From IMG/VR virus record IMGVR_UViG_3300045781_000081, positions 1-56,924 of that record: a DNA stretch of 56,924 nucleotides; one strand, written 5' to 3'. Of the stretch, positions 9,363 to 39,257 are shown piece by piece; the stretch's first letter is position 1; each line of letters starts with the position of its first letter. Below the pieces are notes generated by a model. It saw only the letters and a program-made list of their open reading frames with translations. It was not told the DNA's origin and searched no databases. A program made the translations under genes and the position numbers. The stretch is from a virus. Its lineage: Duplodnaviria; Caudoviricetes.

Positions 9363-10914
9363 GTTTAAAGTCAATGCCTGCAACACGCTTGCCTGCTTCG
9401 ATCTGTTTGCCCGCCTCGTCAAAGATGGTCGGGTCATGCTCCAGGTCGTCCGCCTTGATCGTTTCCACGATGGCGAGCGCCTTTTTGGCCGCTTCCTCGT
9501 AGGTCTTGCCGCTGGCGGTCACCGCACCGAAAAACGAGCCGTTACCTGCGGGGATACACCGATACTTACCGCCCTCGCGCAGATGATTTTTGAGTTTGAT
9601 GTTGTCGGCGTGTTCCGGCGGGAAGTCCACGACCAGTTCGTGTTCCTCATGCCAGGGGCTGCGCAGGACCACCTCTGCGATGTACGGGTTATCCCACTTG
9701 GGTGTCGGTAGGATACCACCCGCACACAACCATGCCACCTCGGCGTAGTTCGTGATGTGCTGACACATTGCCTCGGACGGCGGTGAGGGTGCCCGCTGGG
9801 TGGCGTCGATGAAATACCCCTTACCATCAGCCGTGAAAATGATTTCCGTGGACAGGTGACCGTTGTAGCCGAGCTTCTGGTAGATCGGTGCAACTGCCTG
9901 GTTCACTTTGTCGATACTGGCCGGCGTTTCGGCAAATACTTTACCGAGCAACCCACGGTCCTTTATCTCGTAGCCAAACAGGCAGTTTTTGGTGTACTCA
10001 CCGTTGACGCAGAAACCGTCGTAGCCGCCCTCGGCTTCCTTCTTGAGCACGTTCTGCACCAGGACTTCCAGGGTCCGGCTGGCGTGATCCCCGATACGGT
10101 GTTCCACGTCCTTGAGCTTCGATTCAAACTGCATCATGTTACCGGGGTACTTCATTGTTTCAAAGTCTTCCCGATAATAGGGAGTTTTGAGCCATTTTGG
10201 GCCTTTCCCGTCGAGATACTGCCGTAAGGCGTCCGTACCCTTCACTCGGTGCGTGTATGCCACTGGCAGGCCGACGCGGGTCAGCTCTGACAGGAAAAAA
10301 TCTTTCTCCAGTTCCATTTTCTCGGAAAGGCCGGACCCGAATACCCGGTGACCCTCCCCGCGCAGGTAATGTTGGAGGTCGCCGTCGTAGCAGTCGGGGA
10401 AAAACACCATGTCCGCTTTGTCCAGGTACTTCCAGAACGAGTACACCCGCTCGATCTCCGGTAACCCGGTGCCGATCAGTTTGAACCGGCTGGAGGGGTA
10501 CGGTGCGCTCTCGGCGAGGTAGAACCAGACCTTCTTGAACTTCTCGCCGAGCTTCTGCGCCAGGAAGATGTAAAGTCCCTTGCGACCGTAGACCAGGCAG
10601 GTCTTGTCCGACAGGTCAACCGAGTCGGTCACGTCCTTCTGCTTGATCCCTTTCGCGGCAGCATAGATGTGACTATGCAGACCTTCCGGTGGCACATTGC
10701 GCAGCTTGGCGGCTAACTGCGGCTCGTATTTCTTGAGCCAACCGAGCGCCTGCTTCCTGGTGAGGAACATCTGACCGCCGGGCGTGAAACCGTGGGCCGA
10801 GTCAGGCAGATTGTCGGGTAGACCGCGACCTTCGATGATGGTCACATGGGTGTCGGTGGGGGTGCCGGTCACTACGGTACCGTCAGGCAGGCGGATTGCG
10901 GGTAGAAGTCTCAC
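9349..10914 (-). CDS. ATP-grasp (PurD/GARS-like) ligase with extra N-terminal domain
   Basis: VFGSG...MELEK, GLPV, WLK, GYEIKD, STE, FIDATQR..PP; GTG start after GGGAG. Confidence 0.75.
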   Translation of the reverse strand: MRLLPAIRLPDGTVVTGTPTDTHVTIIEGRGLPDNLPDSAHGFTPGGQMFLTRKQALGWLKKYEPQLAAKLRNVPPEGLHSHIYAAAKGIKQKDVTDSVDLSDKTCLVYGRKGLYIFLAQKLGEKFKKVWFYLAESAPYPSSRFKLIGTGLPEIERVYSFWKYLDKADMVFFPDCYDGDLQHYLRGEGHRVFGSGLSEKMELEKDFFLSELTRVGLPVAYTHRVKGTDALRQYLDGKGPKWLKTPYYREDFETMKYPGNMMQFESKLKDVEHRIGDHASRTLEVLVQNVLKKEAEGGYDGFCVNGEYTKNCLFGYEIKDRGLLGKVFAETPASIDKVNQAVAPIYQKLGYNGHLSTEIIFTADGKGYFIDATQRAPSPPSEAMCQHITNYAEVAWLCAGGILPTPKWDNPYIAEVVLRSPWHEEHELVVDFPPEHADNIKLKNHLREGGKYRCIPAGNGSFFGAVTASGKTYEEAAKKALAIVETIKADDLEHDPTIFDEAGKQIEAGKRVAGIDFKHAEV

Positions 10915-29493: not shown

Positions 29494-31896
29494 TCACGCG
29501 GCCAACTGCTGCGGTATCAAGTCCGGGTGTTTGCTGGACGGCGAGACACTGTGCAGTTCTTCCAGGATGCGCAGTATCTGCGTCTTGATACCCGACTCGC
29601 TCTCGTTGGTCGCCTTGTAAAGCTCAACCATCTTGACCTTGGCGGTCAGCAGTGCGACCTGCTCTTTGGCCTGTGCTGTCTTTTCCTTCGCCAGCTCAGT
29701 CTGAACCTTGGCAAGTTGCACCTGTATCTGTGGCGGGACGGGCGGCTGGAAGGTCTGTTCACCTTCTTTGAGTGCGACCAGGCCGGCGGGCATGGTACGG
29801 CGTGCGCGGCTTGCCATCTTGTCAGCTCCCAAGAAATCCATATTTTCAAACAGAATATCCTGGTATTTCTCCATACCCTTGGGGTTGGCTTGCGTCATAC
29901 CCTGGAGAATTTGAGTGGCTTCTTGGCGCTGGGTGGCGTAGCTCGGCCCGGTGGTCACAACTATGTCGTACTTGCCCACGGTGATGTCGTTGAACTTCGC
30001 ACCCTTACCCTTCTGCTGGAACAGTTCGACCAGGTGGGTGGTGTTCATCTCTTTGTACCGTTCCGGGTTGGCACGGACGTTTTTAAGGGCGGTTTCCGCG
30101 TTAGTGTTGATCGGCACAATGTGCTCAGTATCATCAATATTGCGTAGCCGCACATCGCGTTCGGAGTCATAGATTTCCGGGATCATGGAATTGATCACTT
30201 TGCCGGAATGCTCAATACCCCGATTGAGGTTGTAGCCGTAGACGTAGGTGGAAATGTCGCCCGGCTTTTGCTTGGCGTAAACGGCGGGGGCGCTGCGCTC
30301 CGGTCCCACTTCTCCCACATCGCCGCCAAACATGCCGATAACTGCTTTCAGATTGTCGTGCGCTCGTTGTGCCTGGGTGAACAGGGCGGTCGGGGGTTGT
30401 GCGGGTGCCTGGCGCATGGGGGGCGGCAGGAGTTGCCCGTTGTCGCCCACGACGGCGTTGTATTTCAGCACCGCGTAGTTCTTCACATTGGCGTTGATAT
30501 AGTCGTTTTCATAATTCTCGATCTGCTCGGCGGTAGCGAGCCAGGGTGCTTTGGGGGCAAGCGCAATGGTTTCAGCCAATGCGGTTTCCCAATAATTGAC
30601 CAGGCGCTGCGCGTCCTTGGCGTCCCGAATGATCCCCTTGATAATCACCTTACCCTTGATGTTGAGCGTCGGACCTGTGATCATCACGATGGGGATATAG
30701 CAGCCGGGTATCGGGTCGCCGTCCAGCAGAGTTTCCGGGTCCAGGTCGTCCTCTTCCCGATAATCCTCGTAACCGTCCTTGCGCGGCGGCAAGATCGTAT
30801 CCATGGTGAGCGTGTAGTGCCGGATGCGATTGACGGGCGTGGTGCGGCGAGCTGTAATTTTCGGCTCGTCGGGCAGCGCCATCGGGGGGAGCGCCGGGGG
30901 AGCGCCGGACGCGGGAGGCGCAGCAGGACCGGTGGGTACCGGCTGACCCGGCTGACCGGGGGGCGTTGAACCGGGGGGTACCGGTCCTGCTGCTACGGGC
31001 GGGTGGCCCGCCTGCGGTGGTGCGCCGGGTGCTGCCTGGTGCGGCGGCGGTGCGGGCTGCGCCTGCTGCGCCTGCTCCAGCTTGTACTCGCGCAACTCTT
31101 TCCAGTCGGAGATCAGTTTCTTGGCGTCGGCCTCGGGTAACACGGTGCCGTCTTCCATCTGGCAGAAGGTGACTTTTTCCGGTTTGACCACATAATAGTC
31201 GATGACCGCCACCGAGTCCTCGGAATACATGCCCTCCAGGCCGGTTGTGGCGAGCGCCTTGTTGGGCAGGTCCGCGTCCGGCCAAAATTCCTTGAACTCG
31301 TCCTTGGGCATCATGTCGTAAATAAACCCGTACTTCGCGTCCGCTCCCGCCGCGTCCTTGCGGTGCGAGTCGAGGTACACGTTGAACGGGTTGGGGATCA
31401 GTTCTTCGTAGATTTCCTGGAGAAAGGGATTGTCTTCACAGTACCGGGTGCCGACGCGCCACGCGCCGTAGCCGGCGGGTACCTGCGTCTTGCCTGCTTC
31501 CAGGTAGATGTCCTCGGCGTTGGAAATGTACTCGGTGTTGGCGATGATCCCGGCGCGGATACGGGCGATGTGGGGGTCTGCTTTGTAATCGACGGGTTTT
31601 ACGGAGATGCGAGCGCGGTTGTGCAGCATGTCACCGACGACTTGTGCGGGGAATTTAGTGATTATAGGGACTTCGATGCAAGGGCGACCGTCGCGGGTCC
31701 GGTCGTCGCGCTCTTTCTGCGCCCACTGGTTGCCTGCAACGGTGAACTCAAGGCACTCTACTGCGTGGCGACGGTTCTCGGCGTCGAGTTTGATTTCATA
31801 CTCAAGACGCTTTCTAACTTTCGCTAGAAACTTCTTGGTACTCTCGTCAGTCGCTTCCTGTGCCTTGGTTTTCTTAGCCAAAGTAAGTCTCCGCAT
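29494..31896 (-). CDS. Portal protein (P22 gp1-like)
   Basis: G.QW...R...GRPC, GYGAWRV, KDAQRLVNY, GKYD.VV.TGPSYATQRQE; Pro/Gln-rich insert near 30870-31080. Confidence 0.95.
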   Translation of the reverse strand: MRRLTLAKKTKAQEATDESTKKFLAKVRKRLEYEIKLDAENRRHAVECLEFTVAGNQWAQKERDDRTRDGRPCIEVPIITKFPAQVVGDMLHNRARISVKPVDYKADPHIARIRAGIIANTEYISNAEDIYLEAGKTQVPAGYGAWRVGTRYCEDNPFLQEIYEELIPNPFNVYLDSHRKDAAGADAKYGFIYDMMPKDEFKEFWPDADLPNKALATTGLEGMYSEDSVAVIDYYVVKPEKVTFCQMEDGTVLPEADAKKLISDWKELREYKLEQAQQAQPAPPPHQAAPGAPPQAGHPPVAAGPVPPGSTPPGQPGQPVPTGPAAPPASGAPPALPPMALPDEPKITARRTTPVNRIRHYTLTMDTILPPRKDGYEDYREEDDLDPETLLDGDPIPGCYIPIVMITGPTLNIKGKVIIKGIIRDAKDAQRLVNYWETALAETIALAPKAPWLATAEQIENYENDYINANVKNYAVLKYNAVVGDNGQLLPPPMRQAPAQPPTALFTQAQRAHDNLKAVIGMFGGDVGEVGPERSAPAVYAKQKPGDISTYVYGYNLNRGIEHSGKVINSMIPEIYDSERDVRLRNIDDTEHIVPINTNAETALKNVRANPERYKEMNTTHLVELFQQKGKGAKFNDITVGKYDIVVTTGPSYATQRQEATQILQGMTQANPKGMEKYQDILFENMDFLGADKMASRARRTMPAGLVALKEGEQTFQPPVPPQIQVQLAKVQTELAKEKTAQAKEQVALLTAKVKMVELYKATNESESGIKTQILRILEELHSVSPSSKHPDLIPQQLAA

Positions 31897-31982: not shown

Positions 31983-33713
31983 TTACATCTCGCCCCGAAT
32001 ACGTCGCGCTGCCATCATGGAGCCGACTGACTGAGGTTTGGGGCGGCTCGCCAGGTTGAATTTGTACGTTTTGATGATGTCATACGTGTACGCCCAACCG
32101 TTGATACAGTCGGGATGGTAGTACGGGTGCAGGTCCATCTCTGTGGTGATTTTTAACATGTCCTCGTCACTCACCTCGGTGGACACATACAACTTCCCGT
32201 TGCAAAGCGGCCATTCCAGCGCGGCCTCGACGCGTTCTTCCGTGGACCTGCCACCGGGGCGTAGCAGTATGAGCGATCCCGTCTCGGTCGAGACGCGGCG
32301 TCCGTGCGCCTTGAGTGCGCCGGCAATGTGAATTTCCGTGGTGGACAGACCGACTTTCTCGACTGCGATTGCCCGGATGAAACCGCCGTTCAGGTACATG
32401 TCGATGACGGTGTTGATCGCCTCGGCGTGCGTCAGTTCGTCGGCAACCATCCGCTCCAGGTAGCAGTCCGACGCTCCCAGCTCGTTCATGATCGGGTTTA
32501 CGGAGATGATACCGATGAACCACTTGTCACCTTTACGGGTCGCTTTAGACCTGGTGTCGGTGCCACCGGCCTGGTCAATGATAAGGAACTTGTAACGGTC
32601 TTTCGGCATGAAACGCGGCTCGATCCGCTTGAGCATTTTGCTGTCAAGTTTCACGTCCTTAACCGGGGTCGGGTTGCAGAGCTGTTGTGAGTCAAAATAT
32701 TTACTGGTTTTCAGCTTGTCGAGTCGTTCCTGGGGGAGCAGCACTGGTCTGCCTGTCTTGGTGCCGTCGTGGGTAGCTGCTTTGATGATCGTTCGGTAGA
32801 GTTTTTCACCGTGAATGTCCTTCTTGTCACGGATTTGGACCAGCGCACCGACGTGGCTGTAATAGGTACCGACGATCAGCTCCGTACCACCATCCGTTCC
32901 AAGGTTGTCCGACATCTCAAACGCCGCGAAACAAAGGTTCAATTGATCCGGTGACTTGGCAATGTCGAATGTCTCGCAGTCGTCATAGACGCGATGATCA
33001 AAGTGACCACCCGTTGGCATCCCCTCGATCAGACCGAACGCCTCAACCGTGTTTTCCCTGCGACTGGCCGATTTCCGTTTGATCCGGATACCGTTTTGCA
33101 GCGACCAGGACGGCGATTCAGTGTCAGGTTTCTCGTAAAGAATATCGGGGAAACACTGCCACATGACCTCTTTTTGCAGCGTTTCGCGGATGCCGGACAG
33201 GAATTTGTCGGCTGCGGGTTTTTTGAAGGAGAATAACGCGGTGGTGCATTCCGGGTCGTTGAGGATACGCTTGATCGTCAAACCCATTGTGATCACAGTG
33301 GATTTGAAGTGCTCGCGTGCGTAGTTGTGGAACGCTCCGGTGTGGCTCAATCCACCGTCCGGGGTGCTCGCTTCCAGTTCGTTACACATTTCTACGACGA
33401 ACGGGTGGTTGGCCGGCGGCACCTCCATGATAAAATGGACGATGAAGAACAGGTCACCCTTGGTGAACAGCCGTACAATTGATTTTGCGAACCGCTCACG
33501 ATCTACCGGGGGCTGCGCGGCGATGTCGCGGAACGCTTTTTCATAGTCGTGGGCGTACCAGGTGAGCCAGGGGAAGTCAGGGTGTGACGCGGGGTCGGCT
33601 AGGTACTGGTCGTCAGACGGCAGAGACAGAGCAAACCGTGTCAGGTCGGCGTCATAGACGGACCTGCACGGCGCGATCTGCGGGTGCGGAATGAATTTTG
33701 GAAGCGTTTGCAA
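31983..33713 (-). CDS. terL: Terminase large subunit
   Basis: REHFKST Walker A, GGHFD...YDD, GTYY, IIDQAG nuclease motif, HPDCI; TTG start after GGAG, downstream of the tRNA. Confidence 0.92.
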   Translation of the reverse strand: MQTLPKFIPHPQIAPCRSVYDADLTRFALSLPSDDQYLADPASHPDFPWLTWYAHDYEKAFRDIAAQPPVDRERFAKSIVRLFTKGDLFFIVHFIMEVPPANHPFVVEMCNELEASTPDGGLSHTGAFHNYAREHFKSTVITMGLTIKRILNDPECTTALFSFKKPAADKFLSGIRETLQKEVMWQCFPDILYEKPDTESPSWSLQNGIRIKRKSASRRENTVEAFGLIEGMPTGGHFDHRVYDDCETFDIAKSPDQLNLCFAAFEMSDNLGTDGGTELIVGTYYSHVGALVQIRDKKDIHGEKLYRTIIKAATHDGTKTGRPVLLPQERLDKLKTSKYFDSQQLCNPTPVKDVKLDSKMLKRIEPRFMPKDRYKFLIIDQAGGTDTRSKATRKGDKWFIGIISVNPIMNELGASDCYLERMVADELTHAEAINTVIDMYLNGGFIRAIAVEKVGLSTTEIHIAGALKAHGRRVSTETGSLILLRPGGRSTEERVEAALEWPLCNGKLYVSTEVSDEDMLKITTEMDLHPYYHPDCINGWAYTYDIIKTYKFNLASRPKPQSVGSMMAARRIRGEM

Positions 33714-33761
33714 TATGACTCCGCGTGTGCGGTTCGGGCGCGTGTGGCGTCGCAGGTTACT

Positions 33762-33837
33762 TGGCGGCGGGGGTTGGGATTGAACCAACGACCACGGGAT
33801 TCAAAGTCCCGCGCTCTACCAACTGAGCTACCCCGCT
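33762..33837 (-). tRNA. tRNA-Gln (UUG)
   Basis: 76-nt cloverleaf: GCTC/GAGC D-arm, CGGGA-CTTTGAA-TCCCG anticodon arm, GTTGG-TTCAATC-CCAAC T-arm, encoded CCA. Confidence 0.95.
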
Positions 33838-34252
33838 AAACGGTGTACGTCGGTCGTATCCGTATGAGCAGACACACTCGCATGATATACGTGCATTTGT
33901 CAATGTCGAACATTCGGACGACACGACATGTGATGTTCTGATATGTTTCTACTGCTGCGTCCTCAACGCCGACTGGTAGCGCGACTTTAACGCTGTCATG
34001 GTCAATCATTCTCGGTAACTTGATGTACTGGTGGTCCATCCAAACGTAGTGCTCCGGGTTGGTCAACAGCGGTTTAAGGTACTTGTCTCTCAAATCCTCC
34101 AGTGAACCATTCAACTCCAGTTCTGTCGGGCTAGTGAACAAGCACGTTCGGGTTGTGAAGTCGCAGCCCTTGGGTGCATTCATTTCCAGATCGTTCGTCG
34201 CCAAAAGCAACAACTGTCGCGCAATGTGTGTCATACTGATTCGTTTTTCCAT
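33836..34252 (-). CDS. Miniature major-capsid paralog 2
   Basis: 13/38 identical, ungapped, to coat residues 362-399; N-terminal and spine-helix blocks also align; AGGAGG RBS. Confidence 0.75.
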   Translation of the reverse strand: MEKRISMTHIARQLLLLATNDLEMNAPKGCDFTTRTCLFTSPTELELNGSLEDLRDKYLKPLLTNPEHYVWMDHQYIKLPRMIDHDSVKVALPVGVEDAAVETYQNITCRVVRMFDIDKCTYIMRVCLLIRIRPTYTV

Positions 34253-34263
34253 GTGACCTCCTG

Positions 34264-34551
34264 TTACCACATTTTCATACCTACCGTCAACGCATTCTCG
34301 CTCGGTTCACCGAGTTTAACGCATTCCTTGGGTTTCGCCTTGGGGTGGTTTTCACTCATATATACGAACAGCATGTCCGCGAGCGCCTTGTGGATTACCG
34401 GAATGTTTTTCTCCAGACGGCAGGTGTCGGTGACCACGCGCCAATCGGTTCCCACACATATCTCGACGCGGGCGTGGTACTGCTGTTCGTTTATGTCGTA
34501 GGCGGACAGCTTGCGCGTGAAAGAATCAAACTGCTTGCGGGTCAAGGACAT
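34264..34551 (-). CDS. Hypothetical protein between the mini-capsid genes
   Basis: Tightly packed ORF. Confidence 0.6.
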   Translation of the reverse strand: MSLTRKQFDSFTRKLSAYDINEQQYHARVEICVGTDWRVVTDTCRLEKNIPVIHKALADMLFVYMSENHPKAKPKECVKLGEPSENALTVGMKMW

Positions 34552-34946
34552 ACCACCCCCACGTCGAATTTGAGACTCACCGCAACAAACCCTTCCACCC
34601 ACGACATGTCAATGAGGCGAACTGATAAACCATTGAGTGTTTCTCTCACTGAATTGAAATCTTTACTAGCCAATGGTAGCATTACGGTTCCCATGTCGCA
34701 GCAGTTATTGTCTAACCAAAGTTCTATCATCATGCCGGCCAATGTTGACGCGGCAGGTCTTAAATATCTCAGAGAAAAATCAAGTATTGGGAGTTTTAAA
34801 TCAGCAGGTTTAACGTGCATGTCTATACCGAGAATGTCTTTTCTTCTATTGGTAGAAATACATGTCATTGGTATCTGATCCACATATTGACTTAGAATTT
34901 TAAGAAATTTTCGGTTTATTTGAATCAGGTTGATTTCATCACGCAT
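34542..34946 (-). CDS. Miniature major-capsid paralog 1 (possible longer form from 35150)
   Basis: 16/37 identical, ungapped, to coat residues 80-116; N- and C-terminal blocks also align; GGAGG RBS. Confidence 0.8.
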   Translation of the reverse strand: MRDEINLIQINRKFLKILSQYVDQIPMTCISTNRRKDILGIDMHVKPADLKLPILDFSLRYLRPAASTLAGMMIELWLDNNCCDMGTVMLPLASKDFNSVRETLNGLSVRLIDMSWVEGFVAVSLKFDVGVVCP

Positions 34947-35151
34947 GTGATCCCCTCCTACCCTGCGCTGTGCCCTGGGTTGCCGCTCCTTAACCGGTGC
35001 GAGCCGGTTATCCTGTGCTGCTGCTACCCGGTTGCTGTAACCCACGATCAGTTCGTGCTCCCAACACCCCGGTCGTGGTAATGAACCCTCGTACCGGATT
35101 CCGCAGGTTTTGCAGATTATCAGATTTGGGCCACTTTGCTGTGTCTCCACG

Positions 35152-35505
35152 CTACACCTCCACCACGCCGGACAGCTCCGACTCGCGCATGATCCGCACC
35201 GGATAATCCCACGGCAACCGCGCCCGACCCGCCTCAGCGGGGAACATGACGGTCATACCTACCTCGACCTCCAGGGGGAGCAGCACGTCGCGTTTAGAGC
35301 GCCGGCCCGGTCCGACAACCTCGACCACGCCTTGCATGACGGTGCCAGGCTGCGGGCCGGACGGAGTGACGTACACCAGACCGTCGTGCAACGGTGGTGC
35401 GCTCTCTCTGACCGCGATCCAGTCAGCGATGAGGCGCAGGGCGCGGGGGGTGGCTCCGGGGGCGATGGAGCGGCCTGATCCTTCTTGTCTGAGTCCGTGT
35501 GTCAT
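35152..35505 (-). CDS. groES: GroES/Cpn10 co-chaperonin homolog
   Basis: LR.I.D.I.VR, G.V..VGPGR, PLEV.VG..V.F, IMRESEL.GVV. Confidence 0.85.
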   Translation of the reverse strand: MTHGLRQEGSGRSIAPGATPRALRLIADWIAVRESAPPLHDGLVYVTPSGPQPGTVMQGVVEVVGPGRRSKRDVLLPLEVEVGMTVMFPAEAGRARLPWDYPVRIMRESELSGVVEV

Positions 35506-35903: not shown

Positions 35904-36257
35904 TCATTTCTTTTCCGCCTTCTTGATAGCGCGCACGATTGTGGGCTTTTTGGCCTGTTTCTTTGTTATAACTACTTCACCTTTGTGAACTAACGCCGGT
36001 CCGGTCTTCTTTACCTTCCCGCCATTTTTATACGCCGGAAGTAATGTTGAACCGCCATCAGTACTAAATGGCCGCTTGGGTATGGAAGGTGCTGTGGCGA
36101 ACGACCCTGTTTTTTGAGCAGCGTCATTTCTGGCGTTGTTTGATGTTTCATTCTTGTATTGAGAAATAGGCTTTTCTGAGGCGGCCCTTTCCTTTGAGTT
36201 TTTACTTCTTCGTTCGCTTTCTGAAATCTTTATTTTCTCTCTGTCTGTTAATTTCAT
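35904..36257 (-). CDS. Basic protein with YKNGGKV...VHKGEVV motif
   Basis: GGAGG RBS; lower GC; motif visible in the translation. Confidence 0.7.
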   Translation of the reverse strand: MKLTDREKIKISESERRSKNSKERAASEKPISQYKNETSNNARNDAAQKTGSFATAPSIPKRPFSTDGGSTLLPAYKNGGKVKKTGPALVHKGEVVITKKQAKKPTIVRAIKKAEKK

Positions 36258-36892: not shown

Positions 36893-37073
36893 AACTTAGG
36901 CTGGATTTACACCGGCTGTCTGCGCGATAGGCGTGTGGTTTGCGACGCCTCGTTTTACTCCTTACCCACCCCTCTTATCACACTCATTTGGAGTGGTCCC
37001 ACCCGCACCGTGTCGTGTCCTACCGGGTAAGTTCTCGCACAGCGGATTCTCCCCCACGTGGGGCCGCTAAGTC
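36893..37073 (-). ncRNA. Candidate structured ncRNA with tRNA-like closure
   Basis: Intergenic; GACTTAG/CTAAGTT closing stem, T-arm-like GCCGG-TGTAAAT-CCAGC, several internal hairpins. Confidence 0.3.
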
Positions 37074-37468
37074 TCCTGTGCAGCCGCCGCCCGGTGTCGG
37101 GCGTACAGCGCGGTTACTGTTTCGACCGGCGTGCCGGGCGGTGGTGGCGTGTCAACGGGTAGACACATATCCTGCGGCACTATGACGTACCGCTCGTTGT
37201 CGAGATGGACGCGGTAGCACAATGTGTTGTACACCATCTCCGCCATGACGACCGTGCCTGTTTGCCCACGGCTGGTGTGACCTGGGCCGATCACCACGCG
37301 GGTGCCCTCCGGTCCCTTACTCACCGAAATGTACGCCAGTTCAATAGCTCCAACGATACCCCGGAGCGCCATGCACATCGGTTCGCCGGGGTCGGCGTCG
37401 TGGTCGATCAGCCGCTCGATGTTGTCGCGTAGCTCTGTGACAAAGCGGTCCAGTCTGTCGCGGCTCAT
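37067..37468 (-). CDS. Hypothetical protein with C-terminal KOW/SH3-like domain
   Basis: G.RVVI..G...GQTGTV...YRVHLD. Confidence 0.6.
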   Translation of the reverse strand: MSRDRLDRFVTELRDNIERLIDHDADPGEPMCMALRGIVGAIELAYISVSKGPEGTRVVIGPGHTSRGQTGTVVMAEMVYNTLCYRVHLDNERYVIVPQDMCLPVDTPPPPGTPVETVTALYARHRAAAAQET

Positions 37469-38151
37469 ACAGCACACCGCTGGAGCACGGAACGTACCGC
37501 TGATGCGGTCCAGGCACCTTTACCGCCAGGCGTGAGCATCTGGTCGGCGGTGAGTTGTGCAGCGATGTCACGCAGGGACATACCCTTGTCGCGATAACGA
37601 GTGACCAGAGGACCAATCTTGCGAGCGTAGGTGTCGGCTTTGCGACGCCGGGTTTCCGACCCGGCAGTGCGCCCGGCAGCAGCCGCCGCAGTGGTGAGAT
37701 TGTTGGGCGATCCGAGCTTGACGCCGCGATCACGCAGGGAACTGAGTGCTGATTTAGTGCGCTGCGATATAAGACCACGTTCGTATTCAGCCAATGCCGC
37801 GAAAACATGAATTATGAAACTGTTGACGATGGGAAGATCGCATGCGATGAAATTCACGTTACTTTTCATCACAGCGTTGATAAATCCCACGTCGCGGCTC
37901 AATCGGTCGAGTTTTGCGACCAACAGGACCGCTCCAGTCAATTCAGCGTGCATGAGTGCCGCCGCAAGTTGCGGTCGGTCGTTGTGGGCACCTGACTCAA
38001 CCTCTACAAACTCCCGTAGGTGATCGTCGGCGGTCGCACCCTGACCTGTCAGGTACTGTTGAACGGTGGTTTGCTGCGCTTCCAGTCCGAGGCCGGATGC
38101 TCCCTGCTTGGCGGTACTGACGCGGACGTAGGAGACGTACTTTGTGGTCAC
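37465..38151 (-). CDS. Serine recombinase (resolvase-type catalytic domain plus short DNA-binding domain)
   Basis: YVRVSTAKQ, ESG...RPQL, KLDRLSR, ER..IS.RTK, G.SLR.IA..L. Confidence 0.95.
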   Translation of the reverse strand: MTTKYVSYVRVSTAKQGASGLGLEAQQTTVQQYLTGQGATADDHLREFVEVESGAHNDRPQLAAALMHAELTGAVLLVAKLDRLSRDVGFINAVMKSNVNFIACDLPIVNSFIIHVFAALAEYERGLISQRTKSALSSLRDRGVKLGSPNNLTTAAAAAGRTAGSETRRRKADTYARKIGPLVTRYRDKGMSLRDIAAQLTADQMLTPGGKGAWTASAVRSVLQRCAV

Positions 38152-38759: not shown

Positions 38760-39257
38760 CTATAGGTAATCAGTCAGATCGATGGGTAGAAACTCGGCGC
38801 TAATGCTGGCGGTCAAGCTGACCTTGGGTTGCTCGCGGTCCATGACAAGTTCAACGGCTCGCATTACATCGCTTCCCTTGGGCTGCACACCTCCGGTCTT
38901 GGCTCCTGTAGTGGGGTCGGTGGTCTGACCTATTGGTTTTCCTTGGATAAATTTCTTGGTGGTCTGCGTTGCTAGTGACAGCAATTTGTCCCGTTCCAGC
39001 TCATAGCTGTTTAATTTACGCTCTAACCTGGTGCCGTGTTGCGGCGTGTATCCGAGTAGTTCAGCGGCTTGTGTCGGGCCTGCTCCTGCTTCACGTAACA
39101 AACCATAAGCGGCGTGTTTCATACTTACTTTTTTATCTTCATGTGCCGGTTTTCTCCCTCCTTTGCTCCTGTCTCTCTCTGGTGTGTTCATGCTCTGAAC
39201 GTCTATAGGATAAATTGCTATCGGTTTTACAGGGGTTTCTGTCTCAAATAATCCCAT
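38760..39257 (-). CDS. Putative terminase small subunit (HTH)
   Basis: G.GPTQAAELLGYT HTH; first gene after a late-oriented promoter; no other terS candidate found. Confidence 0.5.
   Translation of the reverse strand: MGLFETETPVKPIAIYPIDVQSMNTPERDRSKGGRKPAHEDKKVSMKHAAYGLLREAGAGPTQAAELLGYTPQHGTRLERKLNSYELERDKLLSLATQTTKKFIQGKPIGQTTDPTTGAKTGGVQPKGSDVMRAVELVMDREQPKVSLTASISAEFLPIDLTDYL

Follow-up and report, generated by a model that had tools for sequence, protein, structure and literature searches.

Among capsid folds the HK97 fold is the most widespread. Its domains, among them the P-domain and the N-arm, which touch neighbouring subunits in the lattice, are generally viewed as belonging inseparably to a shell subunit. 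The only class of truncated HK97 derivatives that has been described is that of the Family 4 encapsulins, which consist of the A-domain only. The domain borders of P22-type coat proteins have been defined in gp5 of phage P22 (PMC9965877) as follows: (i) N-arm, residues 2-30, (ii) P-domain, residues 31-33, 79-127 and 358-416, (iii) F-loop, residues 34-50, and E-loop, residues 51-78, (iv) I-domain, residues 222-345, and (v) A-domain, residues 128-221, 346-357 and 417-430. In the present study we analyzed IMG/VR record IMGVR_UViG_3300045781_000081 (56,924 bp; the whole record, referred to below as the window), a phage genome of 100% completeness according to CheckV, with a P22-like head module on its minus strand. 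Besides the normal coat protein gene of this module the window contains two small open reading frames (ORFs), miniA and miniB (Table 1). We are highly confident that their products represent a small, old family of miniature P22-type HK97-fold capsid homologues (hereafter minis), in which the N-arm helix, spine helix and P-domain sheet persist, whereas both loops (F and E), the A- and I-domains and the C-terminal tail are gone. Since these domains are missing, the minis should be unable to build capsomers.

The initial annotation, made from the sequence of the window alone, had described both ORFs as homologues of the coat protein that are colinear with it but lack internal parts, and this was borne out by BLASTP, shuffling controls, profile searches and hhalign. 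In BLASTP, residues 38-73 of miniA matched coat residues 81-116 (16/36 identical, E 9e-6) and residues 90-129 of miniB matched coat residues 360-399 (13/40 identical, E 1e-4), with a weak colinear match of miniB residues 41-61 to coat residues 89-107 (E 0.076). Not one of 2000 shuffles of either ORF reached the observed score (best shuffles 24.3 and 23.9 bits versus 27.3 and 30.4 bits for the two ORFs). When the coat protein was compared with all six frames of the whole window (tblastn), the two minis were the best non-self matches (E 0.005 and 0.083; the next match at 0.79), and they lay on the same strand, 1 kb apart and in colinear order. A candidate third copy at 36996-37549 (tblastn E 1.6-2.9) was rejected, as the coat profile gave an E value of 17 there. 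With regard to the three blocks of similarity that had been proposed, the colinear three-block alignment was recovered, and block 2 of miniA and block 3 of miniB stood on their own, whereas the N-terminal block taken alone was not significant (domain E > 100) and both block 3 of miniA (E 4.0) and block 2 of miniB (the match at E 0.076) were weak by themselves.

Direct comparison of miniA with miniB revealed no detectable similarity (BLASTP E 8.3), which agrees with the earlier description of the copies as highly diverged from each other. The two are linked through P0006, a mini of 134 amino acids (aa) encoded by a sister phage, since both align with it from end to end (E 5e-12 for miniA, E 7e-4 for miniB). 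A profile of these three members, used against 2122 ORFs, matched only the family and coat proteins, and reached coats 35% identical to the resident coat in the form of three colinear pieces. Against 1.84 billion representative proteins the same profile gave 20 matches at E <= 1e-3: (i) the three known members, (ii) two new minis, P0013 (132 aa) and P0024 (141 aa), in which all three coat blocks are present, (iii) 11 proteins of 362-431 aa, with PF11651, the Pfam family of P22-type coats, in 11/11 tested, and (iv) four long or repetitive sequences, three of which were scanned and look like low-complexity noise, the fourth being P0010. The full-length family thus comprises six proteins, namely miniA, miniB, P0006, P0013, P0024 and mini-C, a further full-length member (132 aa, E 4.6e-9) in the genome of the sister phage.

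The relationship was also apparent with larger profiles. A five-mini profile, run against 4532 ORFs from 22 sources, retrieved the minis and 21/21 coat rows at E <= 0.1 (coat rows from 3e-10 to 0.09), with the next match only at E 0.75. A profile of 24 coats, used to search short ORFs, ranked P0006 (5.6e-8), miniB (2.3e-6) and miniA (2.3e-5) ahead of two coat-like fragments discussed below, P0007 (8.7e-4) and P0004 (0.22, just above noise, which began at 1.6). The profile comparison suggested in the initial annotation likewise gave a clear result: hhalign of the minis against 12 coats returned a probability of 96.4% (E 1.4e-9). The curated PF11651 model gave no match at E <= 1 for miniA, miniB, P0013 or P0024, miniA and miniB matched no family in Pfam or PHROGs, and the mini profile found no match by sequence among solved structure chains.

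Alignment with MAFFT placed the minis opposite coat residues 1-24, ~79-127 and ~354-407, while coat residues ~25-78 and ~128-353 have no counterpart in any of the six. When these ranges are set against the gp5 domain borders, the minis appear as an N-arm plus a P-domain from which the loops and the A- and I-domains have been excised. Both copies in the window therefore lack the same parts (E-loop, A- and I-domains), as had been noted from their sequences; the label "P-domain-only" given to them is correct as to the P-domain core and the lost domains, but overlooks the N-arm, which has been kept too. An alignment-based AlphaFold2 (AF2) model of miniA consists of a helix (residues 7-22), a strand (39-45), a long helix (54-79) and strands between residues 100 and 129, with a mean predicted local distance difference test (pLDDT) value of 70.7; a single-sequence AF2 model of the same protein (pLDDT 39.7) was uninformative. 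The architecture typical of the P-domain, i.e. an N-arm helix, a long spine helix and a beta-sheet, is thus present in the models of the minis.

Structural comparisons supported the assignment in part. The first 43 rows of a structural search with the alignment-based model were all HK97-fold shells, although coat rows are contained in the alignment from which the model was made. ESM Atlas holds its own model of miniB, which is independent of the alignment used here, and the clusters nearest to it are major-capsid clusters, with template modelling (TM) scores of 0.53-0.60 over 109-115 residues and 6/9 rows named capsid. The first two comparisons point to capsid proteins and encapsulins. On the other hand, when the alignment-based model was compared with PDB and BFVD by Foldseek, nothing was returned at E <= 0.001 (best HK97-fold row, encapsulin 8v4q_C, TM 0.40). 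No result of an ESM Atlas feature search with miniA reached 0.9. The Atlas clusters nearest to miniB by language-model features (scores 0.86-0.87) are small viral hypothetical proteins of 96 aa (105 members), 106 aa (55 members) and 84 aa (82 members, 12% of which carry PF11651); we regard them as leads, which could be either additional small proteins derived from coats or gene calls that were truncated.

The sister phage (L002/G001) is represented by a complete record of 57,188 bp, whose large terminase (TerL), coat and scaffold are 67%, 81% and 57% identical, respectively, to those of the window. Both mini-carrying records are therefore complete 57-kb phage genomes with a coat, scaffold, portal and TerL of their own. 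In the sister genome the stop codon of the P0006 gene overlaps the TerL start codon, whereas the mini-C gene lies 24 kb from TerL; given its presence, each of the two phages has two full minis, in partly different places. The neighbours of mini-C are a lysine-rich protein and a protein 79% identical to that encoded at 9421-10914 of the window, for which only weak PHROG matches were obtained (a family of unknown function and tape measure proteins). The latter gene belongs to the late-gene arm, and the same arm of the window holds an ejection-protein-like gene. It is worth mentioning that lysine-rich proteins of about 117 aa are encoded near minis in both phages, at 35904-36257 (-) in the window and at L023:2030-2380 (-) in the sister. 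They are homologous (55% identity over 40 aa, E 8.5e-7), and the sister copy is located directly upstream of mini-C, so this gene and a mini may travel together as a cassette.

Beyond these two genomes the family appears to be rare. P0013 and P0024 are encoded on contigs of 1254 bp and 2521 bp. A further 11 loci of at least 11 kb around coats 32-46% identical to the resident one, all of them partial, yielded no mini, and neither did the record behind locus L003 (40% complete); since mini-C lies 24 kb from TerL, minis may reside elsewhere in those genomes than at the loci searched. A tblastn search of 50,697 phage records (GenBank phages) with P0013 and P0024 gave no match. Word-indexed homologue searches with miniA and miniB retrieved only the queries themselves, the five-member profile yielded no new member, and nothing was found in scans of viral contigs with miniB, P0013 and P0024 or of genome contigs with P0024 and with the coat.

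A tree built from 111 shared columns of the six minis and 24 coats placed all minis on one side of a single branch and all coats on the other (support 92/93), a position in which long-branch attraction is possible. Within the family miniA pairs with P0006 (97/80), and miniB forms a different deep lineage. The end branches of the minis measure 1.35-1.78 substitutions per site versus a median of 0.3 for coats, i.e. over the same columns the minis evolve about five times faster. Identity between minis and coats (17-31%) is in the same range as that among the minis themselves (19-31%), and the resident coat is not nearer to the minis than are coats sharing only 30-50% identity with it; in fact, the five-mini profile scored other coats better (~1e-10) than the resident coat (4.6e-6). 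The equal distance to resident and other coats, together with the separate position in the tree, indicates that the minis are an old lineage and did not arise recently by copying of the resident coat gene. For this reason the earlier interpretation of miniA and miniB as paralogues of the phage's own coat does not hold in any recent sense.

The same interpretation had seen in the two ORFs an old, maintained family instead of decaying fragments, and in this respect our results agree with it: the reading frames have stayed open, the genes have Shine-Dalgarno sites, and residues conserved in coats (25 columns in which at least 80% of coats agree) are kept by the minis in 73/146 cells, compared with 103/472 elsewhere. 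A basic residue at the positions of coat R13 and R103 and a proline at P363 were retained in 6/6 minis, while R371, invariant in the 24 coats, has been lost in 6/6. The minis contain 2-5 cysteines each, versus 1-2 in the equivalent columns of coats, and 5/6 of them share, in the linker behind the N-arm, a cysteine that is lacking in coats.

As shown in Table 1, miniB, the ORF P0004 and miniA occupy three separate reading frames in the same orientation as the head genes, directly upstream of TerL; the order is tRNA-Gln, miniB, P0004, miniA, Cpn10 gene. The first 10 nt of P0004 are also the last 10 nt of miniA, read in a different frame. An AGGAGG motif is located 4-7 nt ahead of the ATG of both miniA and miniB, which confirms the ribosome-binding sites assigned to them. 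In the family as a whole, AGGAGG or GGAGG precedes three mini genes and P0007, and mini-C has only a weaker purine-rich stretch. A gene-caller variant of miniA (P0005, 167 aa) carries an N-terminal extension that is absent from P0006.

Table 1. Coordinates of the miniature coat genes and of other features of the window.
Feature	Position	Strand	Basis or remarks
Resident major capsid (coat) protein, P22 type, 415 aa	26799-28046	-	PF11651 E 3.4e-24 (85.9 bits); phrog_283 E 2.3e-61
Scaffolding protein, 311 aa	28079-29014	-	phrog_8865 E 1.7e-20
Portal-sized ORF	29494-31896	-	Named from position and size alone
Large terminase (TerL), directly downstream of the mini cluster	31983-33788	-	phrog_38 E 3.4e-18
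tRNA-Gln (UUG), between miniB and the TerL gene	33762-33837	-	tRNA call
miniB (P0001, 138 aa), second miniature coat homologue	33836-34252	-	BLASTP, profiles, tree, Atlas model
P0004 (95 aa), ORF between the minis	34264-34551	-	Coat-like hairpin at residues 12-37, then an unrelated C-terminal part
miniA (P0002, 134 aa), miniature coat homologue with N-arm helix, spine helix and P-domain strands	34542-34946	-	BLASTP, profiles, AF2, tree
GroES-like co-chaperonin (Cpn10), one gene upstream of miniA	35152-35505	-	PF00166 E 2.1e-5, 24.9 bits (cut-off 21.1)
Lysine-rich protein, 117 aa	35904-36257	-	No Pfam or PHROG match
Serine recombinase/invertase	37465-38151	-	PF00239 E 5e-22; phrog_125
Possible small terminase ORF	38760-39257		Sub-threshold Terminase_4 match, E 0.22

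Several details of this region deserve mention. The stop codon of miniB overlaps the 5' end of the tRNA-Gln gene, and the longest TerL ORF, which begins with TTG at 33788, overlaps this gene as well. Since the alignment with the TerL of the sister phage begins at residue 27, the true TerL start probably lies about 25 codons inside the listed one. A promoter-like site (33909-33882, 10/12 matches) within miniB could serve the tRNA-Gln gene. The serine recombinase gene is situated in a variable region, between the possible small terminase ORF and the mini cluster. Among the other genes of the window phage are those for a DNA polymerase and a primase of its own. In phage T4, gp31 provides a known precedent for chaperonin-assisted folding of a coat protein, and the phage-encoded Cpn10 may point to such folding here; its counterpart in the sister genome (L002:6116-6421, 51% identical) lies at the corresponding place. 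The sister phage carries an extra gene between portal and scaffold (L002:13117-14919 (+), 600 aa), which has no counterpart at this place in the window. Its product has a signal-like N-terminus and a GDS motif, presumably reminiscent of SGNH/GDSL hydrolases.

The initial annotation had also recommended profiling of the ORF between the two minis, and this revealed a further coat-like segment. Residues 12-37 of P0004 resemble the C-terminal P-domain hairpin, coat residues 379-404 (hhalign probability 89.5%, E 1.9e-6). A homologue in the sister phage (L002:6883-7185, 58% identical) contains a segment similar to coat 379-404 too. In addition, P0007 (96 aa; L002:5662-5952 (+)) is a chimera, whose residues 12-34 are like coat 379-401 (11/23 identical, E 5e-6) and whose remainder is P0004-like (E 4e-4). 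Thus, the sister phage encodes two full minis (P0006 and mini-C) and one chimeric fragment. The location of P0007 corresponds to that of the lysine-rich gene and two small ORFs in the window.

The miniA gene differs in base composition from its surroundings. Its guanine plus cytosine (GC) content is 0.40 versus 0.56 for the genome, falling to 0.37 in the stretch 34650-34949, and the GC content at third codon positions is 0.39, compared with 0.83 for the coat gene. As its GC content is below that of the genome, acquisition of miniA from an AT-richer source is suggested. P0013 and P0024 look like proteins from AT-rich genomes.

Runs from four studies, labelled as permafrost and peat metagenomes, contained contigs 100% identical to the window; the source habitat of the phage is cold soils. 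Identical contigs from two DNA runs offered no polymorphism by which selection could be measured. The whole of miniB is spanned by such identical contigs from RNA libraries in two runs from two studies (33888-34337 and 33891-34292), and the 5' end of miniA is represented in contigs of one RNA library; the gap at 34399-34692, seen in both RNA runs, carries no weight. This coverage is no more than a hint of transcription, and may also reflect carry-over of DNA.

With respect to function, we tentatively favor a role in head assembly. In the P22 procapsid, R293 and K296 of the C-terminal scaffold hook contact D14, E15 and E18 of the coat N-arm, and Y292 of the hook contacts R101 in the P-domain (PMC9965877, PMC12005531); the helix-and-hook of the 80alpha scaffold binds mainly the N-arm of the coat (PMC5644958); and in Family 1 encapsulins the N-helix and the P-domain constitute the targeting-peptide site (PMC11664910). 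Because the parts retained in the minis are those that form the docking surface in these three systems, the minis may be late-made free copies of the luminal docking module of the coat, binding the scaffold or other docking partners during head assembly. According to this proposal, which rests on analogy, (i) the retained N-arm and P-domain would correspond to the luminal docking surface of HK97-fold shells, (ii) the minis would be produced late, as soluble, stand-alone copies of this module, (iii) they would bind the coat-binding end of the scaffold, or else further proteins or coat edges docking on this surface, and (iv) they would tune head assembly, e.g. by buffering the scaffold or by being carried into procapsids, without becoming parts of the lattice. 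The late-gene context of the minis, i.e. the position upstream of TerL in the same orientation and that of mini-C in the late arm, counts in favor of such a role. An acidic cluster ahead of the last helix was present in 5/6 aligned scaffolds. A complex predicted for scaffold residues 195-311 with miniA scored an ipSAE of 0.00; this prediction was made without controls and counts neither for nor against binding.

A number of observations weigh against the docking role. The last ~20 residues of the scaffold are nearly unchanged between the two 57-kb phages (a single Y/F difference), and a dedicated partner of so invariant an end would be expected to be better conserved than the minis, which evolve about five-fold faster than coats and of which miniA is only 28% identical to its sister P0006, as against 81% for the coat and 57% for the scaffold. 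The family is rare, being absent from the 11 loci and from the GenBank phages searched, and is therefore not a core assembly factor. Moreover, the hook of the 80alpha scaffold also uses the A/P cleft, the low GC content of miniA suggests acquisition from elsewhere, and fast evolution combined with several copies per genome would also fit conflict genes.

A second explanation, which we consider unlikely, is that the minis bind the coat and join or edit the shell itself, by capping the E-loop of a coat subunit, by occupying special positions such as seams between capsomers or the portal vertex, by acting as cement, or by promoting a larger capsid size. The P-domain and the N-arm do contact neighbouring subunits in HK97-fold lattices, the N-arm reaching the adjacent subunit (PMC9965877), and Ccm, a capsid homologue that occupies pentamers and changes capsid shape (PMC8569155), provides a precedent for co-assembly. 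Capsid sizing is of interest here, as both mini carriers have 57-kb genomes versus 33-51 kb in 25 listed isolates with this coat type. Extrapolation from a triangulation number of T=7 at ~40 kb with an exponent of 0.71 (PMC8814770) gives T ~9, which suggests, as an extrapolation only, that the heads of these phages would have T=9 and not T=7. Yet the rapid divergence of the minis contrasts with the 81% conservation of the coat with which they would have to assemble.

A third explanation, which we consider quite improbable, is that the minis are counter-defence mimics of a part of the capsid, which occupy or mislead host capsid sensors. The minis evolve fast, host Avs7/8/10, Lit and CapRel sense HK97-fold capsid proteins (PMC13581612, PMC9712102), each genome holds two full-length copies and a reduced or chimeric coat-derived gene, the genes are found in a variable region, and the GC content of miniA looks foreign. 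However, Avs7 grips mainly the A-domain (PMC13581612), which the minis do not have, and binding of the capsid activates the CapRel toxin (PMC9712102), so that a faithful mimic should trigger it too. The minis are also no more like their own coat than distant coats, unlike what would be expected of a mimic of the resident protein, and their genes lie with late genes instead of early ones. In addition, the main text of the EVADES catalogue of 268 anti-defence proteins names neither capsid nor HK97.

Rapid evolution and a patchy distribution would likewise fit a role in conflict with co-infecting relatives or satellites, in which the minis would act as dominant-negative partial coats that spare the phage's own assembly. 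Known cases of phage-satellite conflict involve CpmB, which competes with the scaffold (PMC5644958), and the capsid homologue Ccm (PMC8569155). We find this role very unlikely, as the genes are placed in the late region of the phage itself, where its own assembly would be exposed to their products, and no satellite or competitor is known here.

That the minis are inert relics of old coat-gene fragments is highly improbable. Clear fragment-like relatives do exist (P0004 and the chimeric P0007), but the six full-length members have preserved the same architecture and open frames across 1.35-1.78 substitutions per site, the ribosome-binding motifs and the residues of the coat core have been kept as described above, and RNA-library contigs extend over miniB in two studies, with the reservation that DNA carry-over is possible. 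Finally, the idea that the minis are the small terminase subunit (TerS), prompted by their position directly upstream of TerL, by the overlap of the sister mini with the TerL start and by the failure to find a confident TerS elsewhere (the ORF at 38760-39257 matched Terminase_4 only at E 0.22), is extremely unlikely, since they are homologous to the coat P-domain, none of them matches a terminase family in Pfam or PHROGs (weak evidence, given the diversity of TerS families), mini-C is 24 kb away from TerL, and a tRNA gene lies between miniB and TerL in the window.

Returning to the docking module, we therefore suggest, with the caution that the above objections demand, that phages may have evolved free-standing copies of the N-arm and P-domain as mimics of the inner docking surface of the capsid, which titrate scaffold or internal proteins and thereby affect head assembly or size, or which mislead host proteins that recognize capsids. 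The existence of a maintained family of this composition shows that the docking half of the HK97 fold can stand alone, and offers a natural reagent for studies of scaffold and cargo recognition by capsid proteins. Should the minis regulate assembly or size, they would constitute a new kind of head-assembly factor; should they mimic the capsid in immune evasion or phage competition, they would be, as far as we could find, the first capsid-derived mimics on record. Standard annotation misses such genes, and as the minis match no Pfam or PHROG family, more of them may be hidden among small viral ORFs.

In the open main texts of the literature to which our search extended, we found no description of capsid homologues composed of the N-arm and P-domain only. 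With P22-type coats (PF11651) the minis share homology over the N-arm, the spine helix and the C-terminal P-domain strands, including an LP turn before block 3 and a conserved Arg in the first strand of this block. They differ from these coats in being one third of the length, without the F/E-loop, A-domain and I-domain, in evolving about five times faster, in falling below the PF11651 model even at E <= 1, and in being encoded in addition to a normal coat gene. The targeting-peptide site of Family 1 encapsulins and the scaffold-docking site of P22 and 80alpha are parts of a full shell subunit, whereas the minis would represent the corresponding module in soluble form. SaPI1 CpmB mimics one side of the coat-scaffold interface, competing for the N-arm site, and in this way tunes assembly (PMC5644958); it has no sequence relation to the minis and copies the scaffold side, while the minis would copy the coat side.

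Like the minis, Ccm of SaPIbov5 is an extra capsid homologue, one that acts in assembly and not as the main shell protein (PMC8569155). It is a satellite-encoded protein with the complete fold and assembles into pentamers, in contrast to the minis, which are devoid of the capsomer domains and are found in complete phage genomes. The closest described analogue of the minis is provided by the Family 4 encapsulins, which are likewise free-standing, heavily truncated derivatives of the HK97 fold that form no shell (PMC11664910). These are cellular proteins encoded in enzyme operons, whereas the minis are phage genes located beside head and packaging genes. The truncation itself is the opposite one: the Family 4 encapsulins have kept the A-domain only, and the minis the complementary N-arm and P-domain.

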